Shown piece after piece: positions 36,683-39,047 of a stretch of 45,005 nucleotides of DNA (its first letter is position 1; each line of letters starts with the position of its first letter). Under the pieces are notes generated by a model that did no database searches, was not told the origin of the DNA, and was given only the letters and a program-made list of their open reading frames with translations. The stretch comes from a virus (Duplodnaviria > Heunggongvirae > Uroviricota > Caudoviricetes), in IMG/VR virus record IMGVR_UViG_2778261502_000007, positions 1 to 45,005 of that record. One strand, given 5' to 3'. The translations under genes were made by a program, and so were the position numbers.

Positions 36683-36725
36683 GAAAGCCCCGAACTGTTG
36701 CAGCAGTTGGGGCTTTTTGTTTCTG
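36683..36725 (+). terminator. Intrinsic terminator inside tail operon
   Basis: GCCCC(G)AACTG-loop-CAGTTGGGGC plus TTTTTG. Confidence 0.5.
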
Positions 36726-36771
36726 ACCTTGAATACGGCAAGGGATAATTACGTATGTTTGGAGGTCTTCC

Positions 36772-36939
36772 GTGATTAATTTTAGCGGAGGAGACTGGAT
36801 TGTGGAAGCTCTAAAATTGCTCGAAAGAAGTCCGGTTCTAAGAAGAATGTTTTATACAGTTCTTATAGTTATCGGAGGGTTTGCTGTTGCTAAATCTCTT
36901 CCGGGAATCGCAGAGATCATAAAGGTTCTAAATGGATAG
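36772..36939 (+). CDS. Small hydrophobic protein in AT-rich patch (about 55 aa; alternative GTG 36800)
   Basis: GTG starts each after GGAGG; segment MFYTVLIVIGGFAVAKSL; local AT-richness. Confidence 0.3.
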   Translation: MINFSGGDWIVEALKLLERSPVLRRMFYTVLIVIGGFAVAKSLPGIAEIIKVLNG

Positions 36940-37002
36940 CGAACTGATTCCTAAGGCTAAGACAACTCCGCAAGGAGCAGATAAAGCTGTGAGGATAATC
37001 GT

Positions 37003-37350
37003 ATGAGAACATGGGGCCGCGTCACCGACGCGAACGGCAACAAAAAATGGGTTGCTGTAGAATCTGACGCCAACGGTGATTTCTCCTACGGCTGGCTGAC
37101 GACGCTCATTCAGACGTTAAAGCTGGGGTTGGGGGAGTCGCCGTTTTACGCGAATTACGGTATTCCAGCGCAGCAGTGCATCGTGCAGCAAATTTACCCG
37201 GACTACTATGTGAACATGGTTCAGCAACAGTTTGCCGGGTATTTTGCATCACTGGCAATTTCAAGGGGAGATGGGACTGAGAACCCCACCTATAACATCG
37301 ATGTTGTGTTTTTTAATGGGACCAGCTACCGTACGCAGGTTCCGACATGA
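37003..37350 (+). CDS. Baseplate wedge gp25/W-like protein (putative)
   Basis: 115 aa; GESPFYANYGIP resembles gp25-family PFxPxFG motif; SD GAGGATAA. Confidence 0.4.
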   Translation: MRTWGRVTDANGNKKWVAVESDANGDFSYGWLTTLIQTLKLGLGESPFYANYGIPAQQCIVQQIYPDYYVNMVQQQFAGYFASLAISRGDGTENPTYNIDVVFFNGTSYRTQVPT

Positions 37351-37403
37351 AAGCATGTTTTTACTTGCCTGATGCAGTCGGTGACTCTAAACTCTGCGGA
37401 CTT

Positions 37404-37452
37404 TTGTATCTGGCTAAAGTAAAAATCGTGGTATATAGTCGTTAACAACGAC
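37404..37452 (+). promoter_or_regulatory. Extended -10 promoter plus 15 bp perfect palindrome operator
   Basis: TGGTATATA at 37429-37437; GTCGTTAACAACGAC at 37438-37452; GAGGGA SD; ATG 37466. Confidence 0.5.
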
Positions 37453-37465
37453 TGAGGGACAAGAC

Positions 37466-38038
37466 ATGGCAATAGGTTACGCATTCGCATTGGCGGCAAT
37501 TACGCAGCAGGTTAATCAGATTAATGAATCTGTTAATGGTGCGTTTCTTCCGTTGATCTCAAATGCCTGTGAAATGCCGCAGAGACTTAATGCTGAAGAA
37601 GCTTTCAGACGTTGTTCTGCAATTGCCGGGCTATCTCAGGAAGTTGAAAACACTGCTACCGCAGGAATGCGTCATCTTGAAGCGTTCCGTGATGGAAAGT
37701 TAGTGGCGGATAACCTTCCAGAGGATTTTTTGCCGCATCTTGACGGTTTGGCAAAAGCATGTCGCGGTGCGAAAATTCACATCGTGGAGATGTTTTCGGT
37801 CGCGGAAAAATCGCCGATGTGGCAGGGGCATTTGGGCATACTTCGTCCGCTGAAACGGAAGTATGTACGCGCCTTAACTGCCGTTGAAAATACTGCTGTT
37901 CAACTGGCCGCAGAAGTTAAACAGGTTTTACCTGCGCGGCCAGAATCTTTACCATCTCAAGTTACTCGCGAAGAGGCGATTAATCTGATTACAGCATCCC
38001 ACAAAATGCTGGGCGTCAACACACCGAAATGGATGTGA
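37466..38038 (+). CDS. Hypothetical 190 aa protein, upstream partner of YafO-like gene
   Basis: Predicted helical, no recognisable DNA-binding motif; stop 1 nt before next start. Confidence 0.5.
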   Translation: MAIGYAFALAAITQQVNQINESVNGAFLPLISNACEMPQRLNAEEAFRRCSAIAGLSQEVENTATAGMRHLEAFRDGKLVADNLPEDFLPHLDGLAKACRGAKIHIVEMFSVAEKSPMWQGHLGILRPLKRKYVRALTAVENTAVQLAAEVKQVLPARPESLPSQVTREEAINLITASHKMLGVNTPKWM

Positions 38039-38039
38039 T

Positions 38040-38456
38040 ATGGCGAAGGTCAGTATAACAGGTGAGTTGTGCCATCTCGCGGCTGCGCACAAATACGCGC
38101 AAATGCTGGCAGATTTTCTTTCAAATGGTTCACAATACTGGTGTTTTGGTTCGCTTGGTGGTTTCGAAAGAAATTATGATGCGATGGCCGCGAACATCAG
38201 AAAAATACACTTAAAGTTACCTGGTGATAAACCATGGCCTCCAGATGCGCCGTTAAGTGCAAGAACCTGTGATAATTTCCTTGTTTTCGCACAGCACCTT
38301 TACGATGATGAGCACTACCAGATTCTTGCAATCATAAACCCTGATGCACATCAGCGTGTGGATGCGATGCTTCCACGACTGGTAAGGCTTGCAGAGGAAA
38401 AATTTATTGAACTTTCCTCTGATGAGTTAGCCAGGCTAAAAACCTATGACGCTTGA
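38040..38456 (+). CDS. YafO-like toxin family protein (138 aa)
   Basis: Pattern ADFLS...FG...IRKIHLKL...PWPPD...FLVF...DDEHYQILAIINPDAH parallels E. coli YafO as recalled (ADFIS...HIHL...PFPP...HLVY...DEQAWLLIAILKPEPH). Confidence 0.5.
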   Translation: MAKVSITGELCHLAAAHKYAQMLADFLSNGSQYWCFGSLGGFERNYDAMAANIRKIHLKLPGDKPWPPDAPLSARTCDNFLVFAQHLYDDEHYQILAIINPDAHQRVDAMLPRLVRLAEEKFIELSSDELARLKTYDA

Positions 38457-38457
38457 A

Positions 38458-38480
38458 CCCGCCGCAATCGGCGGGTTTTG
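38458..38480 (+). terminator. Intrinsic terminator closing the cassette
   Basis: CCCGCCG-CAAT-CGGCGGG plus TTTTG. Confidence 0.55.
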
Positions 38481-39047
38481 CATATTTACCGGATGTAGCT
38501 TCCGGTATGAGGTAAATTCTCGGGGGCAGTCTAACTGCTACTTATTGCTAGATACACATTTTTCAAAGTTTTTTATCATGTCATTCAAGACTGAATTCAT
38601 TGCCTCATGGGTTTTATGATCTATTCTTTATCTAGATAATCTTTATTATTTTTTTTGTGTTTTCTTTAGTGTCAGTAATTGCCTTTTTACATACTTGATA
38701 ATTAGAGAAATGACTGTGCCCATATCTTTTATATTATATGGGTTGTGTAAAGTGTTAGGAGGAATTATCATAATAAATATTGTCGAATTTCATTAACATT
38801 ATTCCAGATTTTCCATAGATGGAATCTGATAAGTATGCAGCATTCATATTTCCGGCAGTAAAGTTATCAGTATGACACAGAAAGCGCCGCCCGTATTTAA
38901 TTTTTAATCTATGCATAGCATCGTTGCAGGCTGCTCTTATTAGACGGGTATGATTATTGTCTTATTCTTTATCGCATGCTGAAATGAAAGAGTGGGTACA
39001 ATTAATAATAAAATTAATTTCTTCATAACTTATCCTTGAGATTAACT

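Follow-up and report, generated by a model that had tools for sequence, protein, structure and literature searches.

Probable paired slots for accessory genes among the baseplate genes of a contractile-tailed, Rac-SA53-like lambdoid prophage

What separates the baseplate genes of this phage from one another? An earlier note, made from the letters of the window (the whole 45,005-nucleotide stretch analysed), had proposed that a single insertion zone of distinct composition splits them, consisting of a terminator, a small hydrophobic ORF, a toxin cassette and an AT-rich spacer directly upstream of a J-like gene. Each of these elements is present at the position it was given, and the J-like gene downstream of the AT-rich stretch proved to be Baseplate_J. 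The interruption of the baseplate genes also stands, but it does not form one zone: it is divided into two slots that flank a conserved 115-aa gene. We consider it very likely that this is a Rac-SA53-like lambdoid prophage of the E. coli type, with a contractile tail, whose baseplate block contains a pair of accessory-gene ("moron") slots. The features on which this reading is built are as follows, with relatives' loci given as L-numbers.

35932..36645, + strand: conserved gene for the 237-aa V-like baseplate/spike protein, which bounds slot A on the left ("phage baseplate protein" or bppV in relatives)
36646-37002: slot A, the junction between the V-like gene and the 115-aa gene
36646..36743, no strand: conserved left portion of slot A, kept in every E. 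coli-clade slot-A variant
36772..36939, + strand: orf55, slot-A cargo, gene for a single-pass membrane protein (GTG start, GGAGG Shine-Dalgarno)
36932..37006, + strand: stump of a second small membrane-protein gene, from alignment to L002
37003..37350, + strand: 115-aa gene (phrog_7986, E 3.6e-63), which parts slot A from slot B
37351-39047: slot B, the junction between the 115-aa gene and J
37351..37465, + strand: toxin-cassette leader, with a candidate promoter and an operator-like palindrome
37466..38456, + strand: two-gene cassette, a 190-aa protein followed by a 138-aa YafO-family toxin (phrog_35514, PF13957)
38456..38487, + strand: predicted cassette terminator (stem CCCGCCG/CGGCGGG, T-tract)
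38487..38529, no strand: scar, from local alignment and comparison of 115-aa 3' ends and slot-B starts across loci
38538..39026, - strand: pseudogene of a 179-aa signal-peptide protein, from alignment to L002, L053 and L056
39027..39047, no strand: 21-nt divergent junction at the right edge of slot B, where the minus-strand cargo gene and J each have their RBS
39048..40274, + strand: baseplate J gene, right flank (PF04865, E 9e-8; phrog_6, baseplate wedge)

Two junctions around a conserved 115-aa gene

All relatives keep the gene order V, 115-aa gene, J, 209-aa gene, fibre. Within the E. coli clade, J is 82-100% identical and the V-like protein 91-100% identical (83% in L056); the latter matches P2 gpV TIGR01644 weakly, below the cut-off (E 2.4e-4). 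The 115-aa gene is present in all relatives at 45-100% identity and has 718 homologues in Enterobacterales prophages. It had been labelled W-like, and its place between the V-like spike gene and J would make it the positional equivalent of gpW/gp25; L077 has the canonical Sheath_initiator-J adjacency. Position speaks for the label and the sequence profiles do not: compared with the GPW_gp25 and Sheath_initiator families, the protein gave no Pfam match at E 0.01 and no NCBIfam match, and a profile of 33 of its homologues matched no PDB chain. Its AF2 model (pLDDT 77) has T4 gp25 as the top three PDB fold matches, all of them weak (E 0.06-0.15, TM 0.32), and it draws many weak matches in BFVD (E 0.02-0.17) named baseplate wedge, gpW, gp25-like or sheath initiation. 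The label is best described as plausible but weakly supported. A 32-aa reading frame that runs across the stop codon of the 115-aa gene (37347-37445) is not an ORF in L001 or L052 because of indels in the 5' leader, and was therefore rejected as a gene.

Relatives were collected by an IMG/VR scan; a scan of genome contigs with J yielded a single locus, because the E. coli species representative is without the prophage. Counts of slot contents rest on 63 fetched loci with measurable slots, among which slot A falls into 18 sequence clusters and slot B into 17 distinct cargo configurations of 587-3135 bp. The E. coli clade carries cargo at both junctions alike, and the cargo across relatives comprises Ant, Rha, LprI-like proteins, an HsdR_N nuclease, ProQ, secreted ORFans and YafO cassettes; the cargo that was compared with the PADLOC defence models gave no match. 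Salmonella, Enterobacter and Serratia prophages have an empty slot A and other cargo in slot B. The isolated Yersinia phage vB_YenM_06.16-1 and Shewanella phage vB_Sb_QDWS (L079, L080) are free of cargo here, their V, 115-aa and J genes overlapping or lying end to end, and these genes are likewise contiguous in four distant prophages with the same tail module; slot B measures 0-10 bp in L005 and L061-L063. The W-like and J genes are thus adjacent elsewhere, as the earlier note had suggested checking, and the inserts of closer relatives differ at both junctions instead of sharing spacing and sequence. Compact relatives with the same module, together with closer relatives that carry varied inserts, bear out the proposal that horizontally acquired DNA splits the baseplate genes.

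Base composition points the same way. The stretch 38490-39030 has a GC content of 0.322, as compared with a window mean of 0.483 (sd 0.041, 541-bp windows), and is the lowest-GC 541 bp in the entire window; windows as low make up 0.18% of the total, the lowest ones all lying in this area. V, the 115-aa gene and J have GC contents of 0.51, 0.51 and 0.50, orf55 and the pseudogene 0.39 and 0.30, and the toxin cassette, at 0.45-0.48, is slightly under its flanks (about 0.50). A search of the zone for direct and inverted repeats found no transposon-like ends or att-like perfect repeats, the sole meaningful repeat being the imperfect 24-nt one described below for the scar.

Intact and decayed cargo

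The conserved left portion of slot A holds a GC-rich hairpin (36679-36722) followed by TTTTTGTTTCT, with the T-tract running to 36725. On the + strand its folding energy is -23 kcal/mol (z = -4.0, with 0 of 200 shuffles equally stable), and on the - strand it is -18.7 (z -3.0). The hairpin is kept in all E. coli-clade relatives, and across its 19 distinct variants compensatory double changes affect 3 of the 13 pairs, one of which is GC in 8 sequences, AU in 8 and CG in 2. A stable, GC-rich and maintained hairpin with a U-tract fits a predicted intrinsic (Rho-independent) terminator, much as had been proposed for 36683-36725. Because an A-rich tract lies upstream, it is also a candidate bidirectional terminator, and it probably works in both directions. 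Both terminators of the locus were found by folding against shuffles; a simple consensus scan missed the two hairpins, in the case of slot A because the stem is bulged.

The small hydrophobic ORF that had been noticed in the AT-rich patch of slot A, orf55, is intact, encodes 55 aa with one hydrophobic helix, and has its GGAGG 7 nt 5' of the GTG start. It belongs to a real, small family (6 representatives among 1.84 billion proteins) that shares the N-terminal motif NFSGGxWIVEALKLxExSPVLRRMFY and has a variable TM helix; searches of Pfam, PHROG, NCBIfam and PADLOC gave no match. Only some relatives have orf55, slot A elsewhere being occupied by other small TM ORFs or Rha-like genes. The gene sits 3' of the slot-A terminator, not before one, and the sequence offered no convincing candidate for a promoter of its own; instead of being a moron that the lysogen expresses, orf55 may be transcribed late, as part of the phage transcript. 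The stump that follows retains 24 of the 54 codons of the ORF in L002 and reads MDSELIPKAKTTPQGADKAVRIIV* in the window, a 96-bp deletion having taken the TM half, and its stop codon overlaps the start of the 115-aa gene.

Slot B opens with the toxin cassette. Its leader contains a candidate extended -10 (TGgTATATA, 37429-37437) with a poor -35, and an operator-like palindrome, GTCGTTAACAACGAC, at 37438-37452. The 3' half of the leader is invariant in three cassettes (those of the window, L001 and L052) that have otherwise drifted apart to about 86%, in the 5' leader as well as in the coding regions. We infer that the leader supplies the promoter and operator of the cassette. The two genes are separated by 1 nt. 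In keeping with the toxin cassette of the earlier note, the 138-aa protein has a YafO domain (PF13957, E 1.9e-16, 60.4 bits against a cut-off of 25); it scores 29.7 bits with the NCBIfam YafO equivalog, far under the cut-off of 153, and is therefore a member of the YafO family and not the K-12 orthologue. Its 190-aa partner, a putative antitoxin, belongs to phrog_35514 (E 1.9e-79) and to a family of 29 clusters of hypothetical proteins; it had no match in Pfam, NCBIfam or PADLOC and did not qualify as YafN (RelB/DinJ-type). The 190-aa gene was paired with YafO in all four of the other genomic contexts examined, and the pair occurs elsewhere in Salmonella (likewise in slot B), in a Klebsiella lambdoid early region and in the baseplate region of a Cronobacter myophage, there in a different slot. 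The hairpin of the predicted cassette terminator (dG -20.1, z -3.35) has a stem that is kept in L001, L052 and L064 and a loop that differs in L052 and L064.

Beyond this terminator lies what had been described as a 540 bp, very AT-rich, ORF-free spacer. The AT richness is evident, and the longest ORFs inside it are indeed short (57, 53 and 41 aa), but the stretch looks ORF-free only because the minus-strand gene in it is broken, and the word "spacer" does not apply. The pseudogene aligns over its full length with the intact minus-strand genes of L002, L053 and L056, from which it differs by five deletions: three of 1 bp (one of them in the signal peptide), one of 11 bp and one of 37 bp, 51 bp in total. 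Its frame 1 contains many stops. The same lesions recur in L040 and L070-L075, L030 carries an independent nonsense mutation in the 179-aa gene, and truncated versions of 101-119 aa are called in other genomes. The AT-rich stretch is thus a dead minus-strand gene, the wreck of earlier cargo, which was one of the two possibilities that the earlier note had raised for it. Its low GC would be the native composition of a foreign gene and not a property of a regulatory spacer; slot B of L056, which holds the intact 179-aa gene alone, has a GC content of 0.33.

The two edges of the pseudogene are informative as well. To its left, the scar joins 24 nt that imperfectly repeat (18/24) the 3' terminus of the 115-aa gene (37327-37350) to about 19 nt left over from the 3' terminus of an antirepressor (ant) gene, once present on the minus strand and now lost, and the deletion junction is identical in L056; where relatives retain ant, it shares 25 nt with the 3' terminus of the 115-aa gene. 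To its right, the 21-nt junction is common to loci with unrelated minus-strand cargo, namely genes for 179-aa, 182-aa, 143-aa and 154-aa proteins. The 179-aa family comprises 6 clusters in 5.8 billion proteins and gave no match in Pfam, PHROG or PADLOC, with an NCBIfam match only far below the cut-off. Its AF2 model is poor (pLDDT 65, pTM 0.41) and the PDB matches of the model are meaningless; an LprI-like C-terminal helical hairpin was suspected in this protein, and support for it was not found.

Transcription of J and other readings of the locus

The terminators raise the question of how J is transcribed, and a gene elsewhere in the window bears on it.

12148..12819, + strand: candidate Q-type late antiterminator (DUF1133, E 2e-104; Phage_antitermQ PF06530, E 4.8e-6)

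The Phage_antitermQ score, 27 bits against a cut-off of 26, is barely above threshold. Q-modified polymerase reads past intrinsic terminators across lambdoid late operons. The earlier note had suggested instead that 38490-39030 is a regulatory spacer with a promoter that restarts J and the downstream tail genes, and the location just beyond the cassette terminator, the -10-like hexamers that AT-rich DNA contains and a + strand match (ATGACT-16-TATTAT, 38710-38737, 9/12) are all consistent with this idea. However, promoter-like sites are not enriched (6 found, with 5.0 +/- 2.2 expected from shuffles), the same DNA codes on the opposite strand in relatives, and other relatives have unrelated DNA there, often a + strand gene that ends in a terminator; at least 22 relatives have a terminator only 10-15 nt 5' of the J ATG. 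Moreover, only about 21 nt 5' of J are conserved among loci with minus-strand J-proximal cargo, and the phage encodes the Q candidate, so that we judge a restart promoter to be very unlikely.

We hold an equally low opinion of the possibility that the decayed stretch retains a role, as a small RNA or as a short peptide from the old gene such as the 53-aa minus-strand ORF at 38755-38916. This ORF keeps the conserved core of the 179-aa protein, and the decayed state is widespread (at least 24 contigs) and near-invariant (1 substitution across L070-L075). Yet the 53-aa fragment is without a signal peptide, the near-identity of L070-L075 is consistent with recent common descent, and the pseudogene differs from that of L040 by 7 substitutions in 489 bp, which is not below the locus average of 0.8%. 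Nor did a search of the spacer and terminators for known RNA families reveal a candidate sRNA: the best Rfam matches (E 0.11-0.46) are far under gathering scores and overlap the terminator hairpins, and the folding energy of the spacer is no better than that of shuffles on either strand (z -0.55 and +0.68). Least probable of all, and in our view extremely unlikely, is that the tail module always had gaps and that the compact phages lost them. Slot B is filled in every closer-clade Enterobacteriaceae prophage examined, as such a history would have it, but slot contents are wholly different between lineages with flanks that are 82-100% identical, the 4-nt gene overlaps typical of an undisturbed operon occur in the isolated phages and in those members that diverge most, and the cargo stands apart in GC and comes with terminators of its own.

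We therefore favor the paired slots. Where nothing is inserted, the V-like gene, the 115-aa (W-like) gene and J would overlap by a few bases and be translated from one late transcript, and in the E. coli clade foreign DNA would have built up at slots A and B, its cargo being swapped through recombination at short conserved boundary sequences. The window would preserve several layers of this history: the conserved terminator, the intact orf55 and the stump in slot A, and in slot B a self-contained cassette of promoter/operator, 190-aa gene, YafO gene and terminator, followed by the ant scar and the dead 179-aa gene. In the lysogen the cargo would be expressed on its own, and during lytic growth Q-modified RNA polymerase from the late promoter would pass both terminators to reach J and the tail-fibre genes. 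If so, this read-through would leave a restart promoter unneeded.

Relation to known systems and meaning

By definition, a moron is added DNA that deviates in GC and brings a promoter and a terminator with it; the one recognised first lay in a tail operon (PMC3594210). The definition comes from Juhala/Hendrix, lambdoid examples include HK97 gene 15, HK022 and lambda lom/bor, and HK97 gp15 is a small inner-membrane protein encoded inside the tail operon (PMC3594210). The slots resemble these morons as extra DNA of deviant GC between conserved late genes that is absent from related phages, that in the case of the toxin cassette has its own terminator and a probable promoter, and that lies inside a tail operon antiterminated by Q, for which this phage has a candidate; orf55, like HK97 gp15, is a small membrane protein encoded within the tail operon. 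They differ in that two neighboring slots lie in the V-W-J baseplate block of a contractile-tail module, in their very high turnover (17 configurations of slot B) with much cargo on the opposite strand, and in that the slot-A terminator is 5' of the small ORF instead of 3'. The variability hotspots of P2-like phages, according to Rousset et al. 2022 as cited in bioRxiv 10.1101/2024.10.15.618418, comprise the Z/fun locus downstream of a baseplate gene and the old/tin locus. The likeness is a fixed site among myovirus tail/baseplate genes at which unrelated accessory or defence genes are swapped between near-identical prophages; the differences are another phage family, junctions at W|J and V|W and not downstream of tail genes, and tested cargo here that lacks matches to PADLOC defence models.

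The cassette, for its part, recalls the type II toxin-antitoxin system YafNO of E. coli K-12 in its YafO domain, two-gene operon, 1-nt gap, upstream palindrome and terminator. YafN is roughly 97 aa in size. Unlike YafNO, the pair described here has an upstream partner of 190 aa without a recognisable family and not YafN, is phage-borne and moves between prophage contexts. Overall, the locus is an ordinary, well-documented kind of phage moron insertion, and it leaves current phage biology unchanged.

A more speculative reading, which we think unlikely, is that the location of the hotspot is not neutral, the cargo being a superinfection-exclusion set and the duplicated overlap of the 115-aa and ant genes a recombination linker. 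HK97 gp15 acts in superinfection exclusion at the periplasm or inner membrane. Much of the slot cargo is exported or membrane-bound: the orf55 family, other single-pass proteins of 45-55 aa, signal-peptide proteins of 179, 182, 157 and 143 aa, and an LprI-like "lysozyme inhibitor" whose Pfam match is below threshold. The tape-measure protein of the phage has an SLT lytic-transglycosylase domain. By analogy with HK97 gp15, the cargo could consist of fast-changing exclusion factors that act in the periplasm or at the inner membrane when related phages arrive, obstructing their tail tip or their transglycosylase. The decayed 179-aa gene would then be a discarded weapon of an arms race. The 25-nt overlap of the 115-aa and ant genes, a copy of which flanks the toxin cassette at each end, may be a linker that renders cassettes portable by recombination.

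For annotation, the lesson is that what looks in a prophage like an "AT-rich intergenic spacer" need not be a regulatory region and may instead be a dead gene read from the opposite strand. The two slots form a defined source of uncharacterised small exported proteins, together with an unusual YafO partner, that may act in phage exclusion. More generally, the locus offers a clear case from nature of temperate phages gaining and shedding accessory genes inside an essential structural operon while leaving that operon unbroken, a feat that appears to be enabled by a fixed pair of junctions, short conserved boundaries and terminator-insensitive late transcription.

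The prophage and its two cargo slots

The window is a lambdoid-type prophage of 45 kb that encodes a Cro/CI-like HTH regulator, a holin and a GH108 endolysin; its closest named phage is Escherichia phage Rac-SA53. The genes that bear on the region are ordered as follows.

12148-12819, Q-type antiterminator candidate (DUF1133 and Phage_antitermQ)
32002-33990, tape-measure gene with an SLT domain at its C-terminal end; the tail and baseplate module comes after it
between tape measure and hub, a 222-aa gene, then an 88-aa gene
34925-35932, hub gene (phrog_196)
35932-36645, V-like baseplate protein gene
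37003-37350, 115-aa gene (phrog_7986)
39048-40274, Baseplate_J gene (J)
3' of Baseplate_J, a 209-aa gene, a fibre gene and a fibre-assembly gene, in that order

An insertion zone splitting W-like and J-like baseplate genes had been proposed here in an earlier note. We fetched four annotated relatives; through the J protein, 58 loci from IMG/VR plus one from Kluyvera; through homologues of the 115-aa protein, six loci; and two isolated phages. The V-like, 115-aa and J genes were located in every one. Two junctions vary: slot A (357 bp in the window) separates the V-like gene from the 115-aa gene, and slot B (1697 bp) separates the latter from J. Both isolated phages, Yersinia phage vB_YenM_06.16-1 and Shewanella phage vB_Sb_QDWS, have 4-nt overlaps among the three genes, and slot B measures 0-10 bp in four other loci (L005 and L061-L063). 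Salmonella, Enterobacter and Serratia prophages have an empty slot A and other cargo in slot B, either a YafO cassette with Bro-N, ProQ and a 182-aa gene, or one 103- or 133-aa gene. Flank identity within the E. coli clade is 82-100%, yet slot B there holds 17 distinct cargo configurations (587-3135 bp); slot A forms 18 sequence clusters and spans 16-1528 bp across all fetched loci. Because the relatives differ in both spacing and sequence between the flanking genes, the insertion-zone reading holds.

Among the cargo genes, a minus-strand one for an Ant antirepressor overlaps the 115-aa gene by 25 nt at the latter's 3' end. Others encode Rha-like regulators, a ProQ/FinO protein, a 391-aa protein that has the HsdR N-terminal nuclease domain, a protein placed in the LprI family by RefSeq (under threshold in Pfam), several signal-peptide proteins without known family, and a series of 45-55-aa single-pass membrane proteins. 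In several relatives the LprI-type secreted protein ('lysozyme inhibitor LprI family' in RefSeq) lies directly 5' of J (4880-5626 in locus L001); an exclusion link between it and the lytic-transglycosylase SLT domain of the tape measure is possible.

Among 20,395 complete E. coli records, 92 match the region (from 91 of 5,426 genomes); none of them covers more than 78% of 35900-39400, so that the flanks are common and the middle is not. PP818812.1, named 'Actinobacillus phage vB_Apl-pPE4', shares ~96% identity with this E. coli prophage family over the baseplate region, a match unexpected with a Pasteurellaceae host that may reflect a mis-assigned host or contamination.

All relatives carry the 115-aa gene, called W-like in the earlier note, and 718 database proteins are homologous to its product; it always lies between the V-like gene and J. 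That position favours the name, but sequence profiles gave no link to gp25/W and the fold matches are weak. The three best PDB matches of its AF2 model (pLDDT 77) are to T4 gp25, and many BFVD matches are named baseplate wedge, gpW, gp25-like or sheath initiator (E 0.02-0.17, TM 0.3-0.44 over both databases). 'W-like' is thus reasonable on position and suggestive on the modelled fold, short of established.

A dead gene and a toxin cassette in slot B

The stretch at 38490-39030 had been described as a very AT-rich, ORF-free spacer. Its composition stands: at a GC of 0.322 it is the lowest 541-bp stretch of the window (mean 0.483, sd 0.041; 0.18% of such windows are as low), and it holds no ORF longer than 57 aa. 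It is no spacer, however, but a broken minus-strand gene. Positions 38528-39047 align to locus L002 over a minus-strand CDS (WP_000733801.1, 179 aa) with a typical N-terminal signal peptide, which is also intact in L053 and in L056, where it is the sole slot cargo and slot GC is 0.33. The window copy has lost 1 bp within the signal peptide, 11 bp, 37 bp and two further single base pairs; translation in the original frame yields MKKLILLLIVPTLSF, then repeated stops, and regains frame only for the final 28 codons. By its sequence it is a pseudogene, and it keeps the AT-richness that the foreign gene has in its intact form. The suggestion that this might be a decayed remnant of earlier cargo is therefore borne out by the alignment and its deletions.

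The L030 copy carries an independent nonsense mutation (CAA to TAA), and in other E. coli genomes the family is called as N-terminally truncated versions of 101-119 aa, a pattern indicating that decay is recurrent. The window's decayed state recurs in L040 (7 substitutions, no indels) and L070-L075 (1 substitution), and the exact configuration of cassette and pseudogene in at least 24 public contigs. Among 5.8 billion proteins, the family forms 6 clusters (90% identity); searches for a family assignment or usable structural match found none, and its signal peptide marks it as a putative exported protein.

The toxin cassette noted earlier (37466-38456) does lie within the zone, and its second gene (38040-38456, 138 aa) encodes a YafO-family toxin (PF13957, E 1.9e-16), followed by a second hairpin terminator (folding dG -20.1, z -3.35). 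The cassettes of the window, L001 and L052 have diverged to about 86%, with the 5' half of the leader rich in substitutions and indels; the terminator stem is conserved and the leader segment CTAAAGTAAAAATCGTGGTATATAGTCGTTAACAACGAC essentially invariant. Features of this leader and of the pseudogene are:

37429-37437, candidate extended -10, TGgTATATA, within CTAAAGTAAAAATCGTGGTATATAGTCGTTAACAACGAC
37438-37452, 6-3-6 palindrome just 5' of the ribosome-binding site, within CTAAAGTAAAAATCGTGGTATATAGTCGTTAACAACGAC
39026-39024 (ATG) to 38540-38538 (stop), minus strand, 179-aa gene, pseudogene

The layout of CTAAAGTAAAAATCGTGGTATATAGTCGTTAACAACGAC is as would be expected of an autoregulated toxin-antitoxin promoter. 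The pair of 190-aa and YafO genes occurs elsewhere in Salmonella (same slot B), in a lambdoid prophage of Klebsiella (early region, nin), and 5' of the spike gene in the baseplate of an unrelated Cronobacter myophage, a distribution that marks it as moving as a unit. A search for families found none recognisable for the 190-aa partner (37466-38038). The protein is not YafN. Its own family comprises 29 clusters, all in Enterobacterales, and a YafO homologue of 124 or 138 aa follows it in all four other contexts examined; the 190-aa protein is a candidate for a new antitoxin type for YafO toxins.

A 43-nt scar (38487-38529) separates the pseudogene from the cassette terminator. Its first 24 nt repeat the 115-aa gene's 3' end (37327-37350) with 18 of 24 positions identical, which places the cassette (37351-38486) between two imperfect direct copies of the 115-aa/ant overlap. 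The remaining nucleotides match the relatives' Ant gene at its 3' end, and the junction with the pseudogene's 3' flank is identical to that of L056. An antirepressor gene has evidently been lost from slot B.

Slot A and transcription into J

As the earlier note had it, an intrinsic terminator interrupts the tail operon: folding predicts a bulged GC-rich hairpin followed by a T-tract at 36679-36722 (dG -23 kcal/mol, z -4.0). It is conserved with compensatory changes (one pair GC/AU/CG, two others AU/CG and GC/AU), and has an A-rich tract upstream, which gives its minus-strand fold a U-rich tail. It would shield the upstream tail genes from antisense transcription by minus-strand cargo (ant and secreted-protein genes), and may also halt stray plus-strand transcription in the lysogen. 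Directly 3' of it lies a small conserved hairpin, CCTTG-AATAnGG-CAAGG (36726-36745), whose 3' arm in L001-type loci is the AAGGAG Shine-Dalgarno sequence of a downstream 45-aa membrane ORF; the equivalents there hint at translational occlusion.

The small hydrophobic ORF (orf55, 36772-36939) is likewise present: it starts at GTG, runs for 55 codons behind a GGAGG ribosome-binding site, and encodes a single hydrophobic helix. Homologues of 43-62% identity retain NFSGGxWIVEALKLxExSPVLRRMFY before a variable hydrophobic helix, and orf55 looks like a real gene. A second slot-A membrane-protein gene, 54 aa in L002, is cut to 24 codons in the window by a 96-bp deletion. Slot A of L001, L013, L014, L051-L056 and L058 carries a 45-55-aa single-pass family with C-terminal ...IRWW and the motif W-K-F-L-L-I-W, in some loci as two or three tandem paralogues. 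L056 encodes a hybrid with an orf55 N-terminus and an IRWW C-terminus, which suggests domain shuffling among these tiny genes.

The idea that a promoter in the spacer may restart baseplate transcription is not supported. Promoter-like matches in 36500-39200 number 6, against 5.0 +/- 2.2 expected from shuffled sequence, with a single weak plus-strand match in the spacer, and the DNA immediately 5' of J differs among relatives. Both in LprI-type loci and in the HsdR_N configuration, the commonest with 22 loci, a plus-strand cargo gene ends in a strong hairpin and T-tract 10-15 nt before the J ATG, leaving no space for a promoter; variants with minus-strand J-proximal cargo share only ~21 nt with two divergent ribosome-binding sites upstream of J. 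The missing promoter space and the variable upstream DNA argue, from sequence comparison, that J must be transcribed by read-through. Terminator read-through is the expected late-transcription behaviour in a phage with a lambdoid Q, and a Q-type antiterminator, for which a candidate gene is present, would carry late transcription through the terminators into J.

Relation to known morons

Elsewhere in the prophage, positions 10591-10765 of the early region match the sok antitoxin RNA family strongly (RF01794, 113.6 bits; gathering score 59), which points to a type I toxin-antitoxin locus of the hok/sok type. The Q-to-lysis interval is a classic moron site. Here, 3' of the Q-like gene (12820-15360), we find tRNA-Thr(tgt), tRNA-Gly(tcc) and an odd 82-nt tRNA-Tyr(ata) call, then ~2 kb without any ORF of at least 90 aa. 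Positions 13300-14448 nevertheless show 92% identity to E. coli DNA whose annotation reads 'tellurite resistance TerB family protein', perhaps another cargo gene in decay. GC is low at 12531-13281 and 14471-15271.

The baseplate region is itself an instance of the moron phenomenon: its late operon carries extra DNA that relatives lack, that deviates in composition and that brings predicted transcription signals of its own. The first moron example, in the tail operon of HK97, encodes a small exclusion protein of the inner membrane (PMC3594210). The region also parallels the fixed variability hotspots of P2-like phages, one of which adjoins a baseplate gene (bioRxiv 10.1101/2024.10.15.618418). 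Our literature search found no account of this particular hotspot, and Rac-SA53 in one paper on an unrelated matter. We think it unlikely that the exported and membrane cargo would serve as superinfection-exclusion factors against incoming tails. Moron hotspots are a kind of feature already well known; what sets this one apart is a double slot flanking the W-like gene, very high turnover, cargo that is often exported or encoded on the minus strand, and, in the window, a layered decay comprising a truncated small ORF, an ant scar and a dead 179-aa gene.
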